In this document: positions 5,427 to 7,958 of the stretch, piece by piece
Layout of the letters: each line of letters starts with the position of its first letter
Position numbering within the stretch: the stretch's first letter is position 1
NCBI GenBank assembly: GCA_020536535.1
Contig: JAHLWZ010000807.1
Location: 1-64,000, forward strand
DNA length: 64,000 bases
Direction of reading: 5' to 3'
DNA from: Pelomyxa schiedti
Lineage: Eukaryota; Protista; Evosea
Translations under genes and position numbers: made by a program
The notes under the pieces: model-generated
What the model was told of the DNA's origin: nothing
Databases searched by the model: none
What the model saw: only the letters and a program-made list of their open reading frames with translations

Positions 5427-7958
5427 ATGTGGCGCTCAGCGAGCGTGAGAAGGGATGCGCCACCGAAAGCACACACGAAACCATTCTTCGTGCTGATGGG
5501 AGATGTGGGATCAGGGAAATCGACCCTTTGCGAGAAACTCACCGGCCGGACTGGTCTCAGCTCCGACTCCGCCGAATCATTCACAAAGGAGTCCAAGATT
5601 TTTCTTTCTGTCTCTCGAAAGCTGGTTAATAACCAAACATACACGACAAAAAAAAAAACCAAACGATAACGTCCCTAATTCCCGAAGCTTGGCCTCATTC
5701 CTTTTTTTTTATCCCCCAAGGTTGGTGCAGTTGAACGACGATACTGGATCGCCGACACACCAGGTCTCAATTCAATGAAAGGCCGTGTTGATCATGCACT
5801 GAATGTGCTTGGAGCGATGAGATTCAAGCCAGTGACGTGCCTGCTCATGGTTTGCTCCCTCAAGGACAGACTCGATGGTTTGGCAAAGGCACTTGATGAC
5901 CTTGTTACTCCATTCATCGAAGAGTTCGGGAACAATATTGCCGTGATTGTCACTAAGTCTGACTTGTGTCAAACTCTCGCAGTACATGAGATAACCGGTG
6001 TTGCACTGAATCTGGGCCTCTGTAACGTTATGGTCACGAGCAAAGGCACAACAAATGCGGAACTGCTAGCATTCTTACAAAAACTAGAAGGAATCACACC
6101 AATTGACGTAACCATTGCACCCGAGAACTTGGTGTCATACTTCAACTTGACGCCTCCTAACTTGAGAATGCGAGCCGTTTACAACAAGTACGTGGCGCAC
6201 TATAAGAATTTGGCCGAGTCAGGCACACAACAGATGAACACTTTGCAAGGAGATGACAAACGGGACTTCGCGTTTTCGTTCAAAGCAATGATGTATGATC
6301 TCATTCCGAAGTTTCAGGCCCAACTTTCTGAGGAGCTGGGAGACAGCGAAGCAAGCCTCCTTTTCTGTGGTGAAATAAAGAAAGAGTTCAAACGTAAGCT
6401 GCTCGAAATCCGCAACCACTGCAAAGAGGAACTGTACGTGAACCACAATTCTCAATTCAGACAGTGCCCTTACTGTGGAAATATTTGGGTCCTCGTTGAA
6501 GGTTCCAAAGGAAAAACTGTTTGTGGGAATAGACCCTTAACGGCAGAAACTTGGAGGCCTTTCAATGTTTTTGATTTCGATATCAAAAAGCTTTTAAAAC
6601 TAAATCTTACAGGACCCAACTGGGCAGCAAGTACAACCACAACTAGGAGTTGCCGGTTCACCGATGCACAGATAGAGAATTACCTGTCAGATCCCAAAAC
6701 TCCAGCAGAAACGGCGAGGGCTATGAGAGCGTTGCGCACCATCATCACAAAAACGAGCCAAGACTCTGTGAACCAACACATTTCTGCACTCGACCCAACA
6801 ACAAAAAGTGCATTGAGGAATCTGTGCCGGCAATATGCTTCTCGTCATTCTCAGTCCCGGCCTTCTCGCTTACTCAATCGCTTCTTTCCCCCAACAGAAG
6901 AGGACATGTTCGAGACCAACGAACTGAAACTATGCTTTGAATTCACAATTGCGCCGTTCTTTGAACGAACAACAGGAGGATCAAACCCAGAACTTACTAA
7001 GCCCTGTGGAAGAACCATTGCATGGAAGGACATGGCTCCTGTTCCACCGCCATCTGACTGGGCCTCGCAATCGGAAAACCGTATGACAACTGTTGATATC
7101 CAGGACTCACCAATTGACACCAGCCTTCATCGTCATCTCAAAAGCAAGATTACCGCAGAGGTAAATGTCGCCGTCGACCCGCGTGTCGCGGCCGCTTTTG
7201 GAGCACTTAAAACTATGAGAAGATGGAGCCAGAGCGACCAGTGCGTGATCAAAGTTCGCGACGTTATAAGTGGGCAGTTTTGCTTCCCAGTACCTGAAGG
7301 AGGACCAGAAATTCCACTGAGAATTTTGATTGAGACCAATCCAAAATTCAAGGACCCAAGAGTGGAACTTGTAGTGAAACATGCAAGGGGCTGGAGTGGT
7401 CTAGCTGACGACGAGATTCGAGTTATTTCAGGCTTCACTGCCAAATTTTTTCCCACACTAACGCCGGATATCATGGGTTATCTCCTGCAATCGCTCACCA
7501 AGTGCCCTGCAATGCCTGGCAAGGTCTACAGTGTAAGCAACCACCGAGACACAGAAAACCGAAATACCCAGTGCCTGAAGGGCAGGTACATCATTTGGCC
7601 AGACTTTACAGCTTGTAGCCGGAGCTTCCCGTCAATGCGGCTCTTCAACCTGAGCACCCCAACAACACTGTATGAAATTGACCAAGGCTCAGGGGTCGAC
7701 ATCGACCCAGTCTCTGTCCGGAAGTTCGAGGACCTTACAGTCTTAATTCCCAACACTGTGTTCCAGGTTGTCGACATCGCTTGGGGATGTGAAGCGAGCT
7801 ATGACACAGTGCACCTCAGGGAGGTTCCTAGGGGAGCAGATCTACTGGGCATGATGGAGTGCACAACTTGTGAAGCTGAAGTGGAGGGACCCTGTTCTGA
7901 AACTAGCCAATCTCCCGTGGCATACATGCCGACCAGTGCCATCAAAGGTAACCCATAG
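5427..7958 (+). CDS. Paralog A of a tandem GIMAP/IRG-like GTPase family. It has a P-loop GTPase domain, a Cys-rich zinc-ribbon-like motif and a C-terminal ADP-ribosyltransferase (ART)-like domain. Exon 1 runs from 5427 to about 5597-5624 and exon 2 from about 5721 to 7958.
   Basis: G1 is 'FFVLMGDVGSGKSTLCEKLTG', G3 is 'IADTPGLNS' and G4 is 'IVTKSDL'. A 'CPYCGN..VCGN' motif follows. The C-terminus has 'KFEDLTVLIPNTVFQV', which resembles the vertebrate ecto-ART 'EEVLIPPFETFQV' block. The stop is TAG at 7956-7958. Confidence 0.6.

Follow-up and report, generated by a model that had tools for sequence, protein, structure and literature searches.

A stretch of 64,000 nucleotides from the genome of the anaerobic amoeba Pelomyxa schiedti (assembly GCA_020536535.1, contig JAHLWZ010000807.1, positions 1 to 64,000 of a 130,585-bp contig; hereafter the window) carries three tandem genes on the plus strand, Pelo_10992, Pelo_10993 and Pelo_10994, which we refer to as A, B and C. 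The products of A and C begin with a P-loop GTPase, continue with a Cys-rich middle module and end in a domain that resembles ADP-ribosyltransferases (ARTs). We conclude that A and C are probably pseudo-enzymes, in which the ART domains degenerated in parallel after tandem duplication and the ART fold was retained behind a functional GTPase. To judge from their sequences, both ART domains have lost canonical catalytic competence, and the dead domain was presumably kept for a binding or regulatory role. The positions of the genes, domains and motifs are collected in Table 1.

Homology to the ARTs of the R-S-E clade, as that clade has been defined (PMC3482391), is secure for the C-terminal domains of both A and C, although neither copy alone reaches the Pfam cut-off. 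With the Pfam model ART (PF01129, cut-off 22.3 bits), A scored 15.6-17.7 bits and C 20.8 bits, both below the threshold, compared to 35-46 bits for the canonical paralogs and relatives. Pelo_4083, one of the paralogs on other contigs, matched the type VI effector Tre1 (6DRE) at 8e-6 by itself. When the ART domain alone was used in a word-indexed search for homologues, one new protein was found, and the wider family was reached by an exhaustive profile search, which collected 2,927 relatives at E <= 1e-3 and in which C scored 355.8 bits. A domain profile of 43 sequences drawn from this search, A and C included, matched Tre1 (6dre) and Vis (4xzj) at about 2e-21 each, HopU1 at 1.5e-17 and rat ART2.2 at 5.8e-14, and it also matched XopAI, SpvB, ExoT/S, C2-I, iota toxin and C3. 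In the profile alignments, which placed the YRG, STS and ExE motifs of the family on those of Tre1, Vis and HopU1, the YRG fell on the YRG of the toxins, the S-C-S fell on FMSTS or FTSTS, and the E-E-E followed by T-L-L-x-P-N-T fell on N-E-A-E-V-L-Y-P-P-N-T of Tre1. The original prediction, which was made from the letters of the window and a list of its open reading frames (ORFs), had supposed that the C-terminal domain is an ART and that the VYRG or VYS site is its aromatic-arginine (arom-R) motif, and both suppositions are borne out by these matches.

The structural comparison gave the same answer. An AlphaFold2 model of the ART domain of A, built on the 43-sequence alignment, had a mean predicted local distance difference test score (pLDDT) of 80.2 and a predicted template modelling score of 0.78, with pLDDT >90 over the region of the ADP-ribosylating turn-turn (ARTT) loop and beta-5; an earlier alignment of 7 sequences had given an unusable model (pLDDT 48). 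The model shows the mixed alpha/beta ART fold with a beta-sandwich core. When it was compared by Foldseek with the PDB, the best matches were Tre1 (2.5e-10) and Vis (1.6e-8), then XopAI, HopU1 and ExoS, and all of the 50 matches listed, among them also ExoT, C3 and Certhrax, were R-S-E ART toxins with a probability of 1.00.

In ARTs of this clade, the arom-R motif [YFL]-R-x binds nicotinamide adenine dinucleotide (NAD+) and the STS motif stabilises the site (PMC6829252). We found that neither copy is catalytically canonical, as had been proposed: at the arom-R, STS and ARTT [QE]-x-E positions, A reads Y-S-V, A-C-S and E-D-L, and C reads Y-R-G, T-C-T and P-Q-S. The surrounding strings are VYSVSN (7524-7541), FTACSRS (7605-7625) and KFEDLTVLIPNTVFQV (7722-7769) in A, and VYRGVEL (13423-13443), FFCTCTRDS (13492-13518) and PQSTLLTPNTVFQV (13630-13671) in C; those that the original prediction had quoted are present on the plus strand essentially as it gave them. 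It was right that A is without the Arg that C has kept, and that C is without both Glu of [QE]-x-E. However, its further claim that the acidic half of the site persists in A did not hold, because the acidic residues that it had matched occupy the first and middle positions and the catalytic third position is Leu. Alignment with ART families upheld the homology and the motif sites and denied the catalytic position to the acidic residues of A. The distance from SGVDI to PNT is 15 residues in A, as in the canonical paralogs, and this equal spacing fixes the register of the E-x-E in A, which reads E-D-L. We rejected a shifted register in which the catalytic position of A would be taken by Glu or Asp, since the spacing is identical and the hidden Markov model and MAFFT alignments agreed. 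In C, the ARTT region is one residue shorter, and the alternative register, Q-S-T, is also without Glu.

Of the three key residues (Arg of arom-R, first Ser of STS and catalytic Glu), nothing is left in A and the Arg alone is left in C, so that the two sets of losses do not complement each other. Measured against the R-S-E motifs, arom-R is absent from A and present in C, and STS and [QE]-x-E are absent from both. Among 186 related domains, the arom-R Arg is found in 178 of the 180 that could be aligned at this site, the first STS Ser in 175 of the 186 and the first ARTT Glu in 169; the catalytic third-position Glu is found in 181 of 183 aligned domains, and A and C are the sole exceptions. 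Thr at the first STS position occurs once in the 186, namely in C. Because A and C fall short at the catalytic motifs, we class them as degenerate homologues (pseudo-ARTs) and not as ART enzymes. They combine what makes a pseudo-ART, a functional category and not a clade: the fold and homology of an ART, substitutions of essential residues, and a protein that appears to be maintained otherwise.

The other members of the family indicate what was lost. The canonical paralogs Pelo_4083 and Pelo_12939, as well as the homologues P0007 (Logan) and P0011 (JGI), read YRG, SCS and E-[ED]-E, and Pelo_12938 reads E-Y-E at the ARTT position. In the S-C-S of the canonical paralogs, the middle position is already off the textbook S-[TS]-[STQ] pattern in this clade. 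The full motifs in Pelo_4083, Pelo_12939 and the environmental relatives point to a canonical ancestor of the family, whose predicted active site was complete (YRG, S-C-S and E-E-E).

The rates of evolution separated the ART domain from the rest of the protein. In a comparison of the ART domains, A and C had branches three to four times as long as the canonical ones. In Tajima relative-rate tests of the ART domain with P0011 as the outgroup, A or C had 25-33 unique changes, compared to 8-16 in Pelo_4083, Pelo_12939 or P0007 (p = 0.001-0.015), and no significant difference was found between two canonical domains or between A and C. In the GTPase region, none of 27 tests revealed an acceleration of A, B or C, the single nominal difference (p = 0.039) being in the opposite direction. 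Since the ART domain was accelerated while the GTPase was not, the acceleration is specific to the ART domain. This fits the idea, already raised in the original prediction, of pseudo-enzymes under relaxed constraint after duplication.

The changes were not scattered independently over the two copies. Of 88 positions that are invariant in the canonical set, 30 have changed in A and 35 in C (60-66% kept). Without the tail that is missing in C, 12 of 76 invariant positions have changed in both copies, which is above chance (p = 0.012). Both the first Ser of STS and the catalytic Glu are among the 12, and the replacement residue differs at every one of them. Overlapping sites with differing replacements fit a parallel release of the sites tied to catalysis, or else a loss at an early stage with free drift thereafter. 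Either course is the opposite of partitioning the site between two genes. At the same time, much of the domain has been kept. Each copy keeps 18 of 28 columns that are conserved at >=80% across 41 other domains; those that the two copies have in common hold mainly hydrophobic or structural residues (L, K, P, V, G, T, I, G, I, L, P, V and E), and the losses extend to the arom-R, STS and ExE positions. The ORFs of A and C are both intact. A has a recognisable version of the C-terminal tail of the family, and no remnant of the tail was found downstream of the stop codon of C, other frames included.

Pairwise rates of nonsynonymous (dN) and synonymous (dS) substitution were calculated from the DNA of A, C, Logan L001 and JGI L002. 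Between A and C, the Nei-Gojobori method (NG86) gave a dN of 0.17, a dS of 0.93 and an omega of 0.18 for the GTPase region, an omega of 0.28 for the middle region, and a dN of 0.47, a dS of about 1.6 and an omega of about 0.3 for the ART region. Where the ART region is concerned, we take from these values no more than that dN is well below dS.

In the course of events that we favour, a gene for a GTPase, a Cys-rich module and an R-S-E ART with a complete active site would have been duplicated in tandem. In A, the Arg that binds NAD would then have disappeared, as would the first Ser of STS, the catalytic Glu and a helix segment of 12 residues; in C, both ARTT Glu would have gone and S-x-S would have become T-x-T. 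Catalytic constraint may have been relaxed in parallel at the same positions, or activity may have been lost early and the copies may have drifted afterwards; a division of labour would not have been involved. The outcome would be a functional GTPase switch that carries a non-catalytic ART-fold module still able to bind something, with both A and C expressed. Candidate ligands of the dead module would be a target or peptide, a partner paralogue and, possibly in C, NAD+ or ADP-ribose; having kept its Arg, C might still bind NAD+.

Several observations weigh against this reading. The alignment behind the AlphaFold2 model was dominated by canonical homologues, and the ART fold of the model is not independent proof that A folds. 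Some ART-fold enzymes of the H-Y-E clade, those of the PARP10 type with H-Y-I, work without the catalytic Glu, and for this reason we infer the inactivity of A and C instead of taking it as given. In the ART region, dS was saturated or undefined in the available pairs, so that dN/dS cannot tell whether the constraint is still acting or was lifted fairly recently. Furthermore, C is without the conserved C-terminal tail and B is without the whole ART domain, which fits progressive decay in the cluster.

A first rival is the view that the ART parts of A and C are functionless, decaying remnants riding on a useful GTPase, or that the genes became pseudogenes not long ago, selection being fully relaxed in either case. 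Such decay could well produce a faster ART domain beside a GTPase that is not faster, the lost catalytic residues, Pfam scores below the cut-off, the 12-residue deletion in A and the missing tail in C, with a neighbour, B, from which the domain has gone. However, both frames have remained open over about 2.2 kb, the ART-region dN is well below dS, and each copy has kept 18 of the 28 conserved columns and 60-66% of the canonical-invariant positions, with a tail that can still be recognised in A. According to our rough arithmetic, >10 stops would be expected in 246 codons that had drifted neutrally in each lineage at half of the dS of the GTPase. We therefore regard simple decay as unlikely, with a small chance of being right.

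A second possibility is that A and C are still enzymes with an altered chemistry, such as substrate-assisted ADP-ribosylation, the use of a different acceptor, or NAD+ hydrolysis only. The fold and many of the pocket-lining residues have been kept, C has an intact arom-R motif and conservative Ser-to-Thr exchanges in STS, A retains a Glu and an Asp in the ARTT loop, and the H-Y-E clade does include Glu-less enzymes with the ART fold. Nevertheless, the catalytic Glu is missing from no other of the 183 related R-S-E domains, the Arg, the first Ser and the Glu are all gone from A together with the helix segment, and with replacements that differ at all 12 doubly changed positions the two copies do not converge on a common new site. 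A change of substrate chemistry, which the original prediction had also suggested, thus gained no support and appears quite improbable to us. Its main proposal, that A and C each hold half of the triad, if extended to a joint function of the two, for example as a heterodimer that restores one site or as subfunctionalised halves, is hardly credible: the Arg is present in C and not in A, the first ARTT Glu is present in A and not in C, and the genes are close together on the same strand, but the pair would still be incomplete with the catalytic Glu and the first STS Ser missing from both, the three motifs are within one domain in the aligned solved ARTs and line a single NAD+ pocket, where complementation in trans is not expected, the changed positions overlap instead of being partitioned, and with fully canonical paralogs in the genome there is no need to rebuild the site.

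In the preferred reading, in which A and C are pseudo-ARTs, the GTPase is the part that would still work. GD[VA]GSGKS, DTPG and TK[SN]D, which correspond to G1, G3 and G4 of P-loop GTPases, are present in A, B and C, and B has an intact GTPase whose G1, GDAGSGKS, is at 8132-8155. The Pfam model MMR_HSR1 (cut-off 21.9 bits) matched A with 22.1 and C with 23.3 bits. The region thus has the G1, G3 and G4 motifs and the match to a GTPase model that are expected of a TRAFAC-class P-loop GTPase. It does not belong to the AIG1/GIMAP group as judged by the AIG1 model, which scored 17-24 bits against a cut-off of 27, and no significant relative of the GTPase region was found among PDB sequences.

The best sequence and structure matches, Tre1 (a type VI effector of Serratia proteamaculans, 6DRE/6DRH) and Vis (Vibrio splendidus, 4XZJ), are arginine-specific R-S-E mono-ARTs. 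Their motif layout of Y-R-G, S-T-S and E-x-E, followed by a hydrophobic residue and L-x-P-(P)N-T, is found in full in the canonical Pelomyxa paralogs, whereas the catalytic Glu has been lost in A and C and the Arg in A. Tre1 and Vis are toxins that bacteria secrete, and their active sites are intact; in contrast, A and C are eukaryotic, intron-containing genes in which the ART follows a GTPase and a Cys-rich module. XopAI, a type III effector of Xanthomonas (6K93/6K94/6KLY) with the R-S-E ART fold, was among the top Foldseek matches of the A model. Its arom-R motif has become FTG and its STS motif AAS, and the resulting site is unsuited to NAD+ and binds an arginine-containing peptide (PMC6829252). 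By analogy, XopAI may be the closest precedent for A, whose ART fold could have been turned into a module for binding. XopAI differs in being a bacterial protein without a GTPase fusion; its [QE]-x-E is still there, in contrast to the catalytic Glu of A and C, and its degeneration was independent. Among vertebrate ecto-ARTs, mammalian ART4 (Dombrock), a paralog of active R-S-EXE enzymes, is predicted to be inactive because its R-S-EXE residues have changed, and chicken ART4 with the intact motif is active (PMC2576468). The Pelomyxa family has this pattern in common with ART4, since canonical and degenerate paralogs are found within one family. ART3 is also an acatalytic member of the ecto-ARTs. 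The vertebrate ARTs are single-domain ecto-proteins anchored by glycosylphosphatidylinositol and are only distantly related in sequence; the Pelomyxa proteins have an N-terminal GTPase, and no such signal was detected in them.

The gene models of A, B and C were obtained by mapping the deposited proteins onto the window, and the main exons correspond to the long plus-strand ORFs at 5775-7958, 8161-10344 and 11311-13764. In all three genes, exon 1 encodes the P-loop (GDVGSGKS or GDAGSGKS) and the large exon encodes DTPG and TKxD. A short intron occupies the same site in each, at 5628-5723 (96 nt), 8216-8265 (50 nt) and 11537-11583 (47 nt). This common site between the P-loop exon and the DTPG exon is consistent with a tandem duplication of a gene that already contained the intron. 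The annotated exon borders of A give about 9 extra residues (LSVSRKLVG) that are not in the other paralogs, which may reflect a mis-called splice site. On the minus strand, an ATG-initiated ORF of 83 aa at 7526-7777 overlaps the ART motif region of A. We treated it as spurious and most likely due to chance, since it is the plus-strand frame to which strong homologues correspond.

Table 1. Positions in the window of the genes, domains and active-site motifs of the Pelo_10992-10994 cluster
Feature	Position	Strand	Description
Gene A (Pelo_10992, P0002, 811 aa)	5427-7958	+	Exon 1 5427-5627, intron 5628-5723, exon 2 5724-7958 including the stop; exact mapping
Gene B (Pelo_10993, P0006, 949 aa)	8066-11301	+	Exons 8066-8215 and 8266-10290, then seven small exons 10349-11298
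Gene C (Pelo_10994, P0001, 777 aa)	11384-13764	+	Exon 1 11384-11536, intron 11537-11583, exon 2 11584-13764 including the stop
GTPase motifs, A	5499-5963	+	All intact; G1 GDVGSGKS 5499-5522; G3 DTPG; G4 TKSD within 5946-5963
Cys-rich middle module, A	6465-7034	+	From CPYCGN at 6465 to KPCGRTIAWKDM ending at 7034; Cys motifs conserved in paralogs and environmental homologues
C-terminal ART-like region, A (246 aa)	7218-7955	+	ART core about 7392-7826; conserved C-terminal tail 7911-7955
12-residue deletion, A	7449-7454	+	Between ...AKFF and PTLTP...; removes the helix segment equivalent to YQNLNSTLHHRT, including a Leu column conserved family-wide
arom-R position, A	7527-7535	+	TAC AGT GTA, Y-S-V compared to Y-R-G in the family; Arg lost (AGT, Ser, 7530-7532)
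STS position, A	7611-7619	+	GCT TGT AGC, A-C-S; first Ser lost (GCT, Ala, 7611-7613)
ARTT [QE]-x-E position, A	7728-7736	+	GAG GAC CTT, E-D-L; first Glu kept, catalytic third-position Glu replaced by Leu
C-terminal ART-like region, C (228 aa)	13078-13761	+	ART core about 13252-13722; conserved C-terminal tail of the paralogs absent
arom-R motif, C	13426-13434	+	TAC CGG GGA, Y-R-G, intact (CGG, Arg, 13429-13431)
STS position, C	13501-13509	+	ACT TGC ACC, T-C-T; first Ser replaced by Thr
ARTT [QE]-x-E position, C	13630-13638	+	CCA CAA AGC, P-Q-S; both Glu lost

The Cys-rich middle module, which lies at 12325-12894 in C, contains the motif CPxCGxxWxLxEGCxGxTxCG followed by NPELTKPCGxxIxWKxMxPV. 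The two halves are nearly adjacent in the environmental homologues P0008 and P0010, and about 130-170 residues are inserted between them in the Pelomyxa proteins. The module is probably a split zinc-binding element, a prediction based on the Cys motifs. Its comparison with Pfam gave only a weak match to Desulfoferrodoxin_N, which is zinc-ribbon-like, and the module alone had no match in Pfam or the PDB.

B departs from this plan after the GTPase. Its GTPase is 85% identical to that of C, and beyond it the identity to the other paralogs is only 15-23%, the middle and ART regions being replaced by low-complexity sequence rich in K, S and G. Short 18-bp repeats (KVDAG-type units) were observed in this part at 9636-9680 and 9888-9923. 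The seven tiny 3' exons encode a C-terminal domain of 224 aa, which had no match in Pfam or the PDB. A caspase-like layout of this C-terminus was suggested by eye; it received no support from any tool and we do not claim it.

Further paralogs, Pelo_4083, Pelo_12938 and Pelo_12939, are encoded on other contigs of the genome, and a few environmental or Logan fragments complete the set. Pelo_4083 and Pelo_12939 are built from the same three modules. Their identity to the A and C proteins was 52-53% in a tblastn comparison, and 53-56% to C in a separate one; they differ from A and C in that YRG, SCS and E-x-E are kept and the Pfam ART cut-off is passed. The protein of Pelo_12938 (P0004) stops abruptly after the ExE (…EYETLLMPNSLPGGECQTGGAT), without the last beta strands and the tail, which may be due to a mis-called splice site or a truncated gene.

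The nearest named relatives of the ART domain outside Pelomyxa are transcripts of Amoeba proteus. In one of them, EP01126_P000122 (P0023), arom-R and STS are degenerate (FHV and CCT) and K-E-E is kept. Since this protein is degenerate too, the loss of the active site recurs in this eukaryotic ART clade. A related ART was also observed at the C-terminus of a long protein of Diplonema papillatum (P0030, KAJ9457564.1, annotated as 'Uracil-DNA glycosylase'), and P0032 has a similar long N-terminal region; long-protein relatives of this kind, such as P0030, have canonical YRG or FRG, S-x-S/T and E-x-E. P0014, a protein of 926 aa from a JGI metagenome, has an N-terminal P-loop (GETSSGKST, then DSPG) and a C-terminal canonical ART (FRG, STT and EEE). 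Fusions of an NTPase with an ART may have arisen more than once.

We also considered Pelo_10992-10994 as a diversifying, immune-like locus with a constant GTPase switch and a rapidly changing C-terminal effector position, an idea that we regard as speculative and rather doubtful. If it were true, the effector position would be held by an active ART in the paralogs elsewhere, by a dead ART in A and C and by an unrelated domain in B. The copies with the dead ART would then serve as decoys, sensors or regulators, and their partners would be the active GTPase-ART paralogs, contacted by way of either the GTPase or the ART fold, resembling the sensor/helper or active/inactive pairs of other conflict systems.

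That enzyme paralogs turn into pseudo-enzymes is already well known for ARTs, as in ART4 and XopAI, and in this respect A and C are an ordinary case. In a limited full-text literature collection, we found no paper that links Pelomyxa schiedti with ARTs, the family members are all annotated as hypothetical, and the architecture of a GTPase, a Cys-rich module and an ART appears to be undescribed. The genes thus belong to an uncharacterised eukaryotic family in which a P-loop GTPase is fused to a Tre1/Vis-like ART, found in Pelomyxa schiedti and a few environmental contigs, with relatives of the ART in Amoeba proteus. The canonical and degenerate copies within one genome form a natural active/inactive set for studying the function of these proteins and for asking why the ART fold is kept without catalysis.

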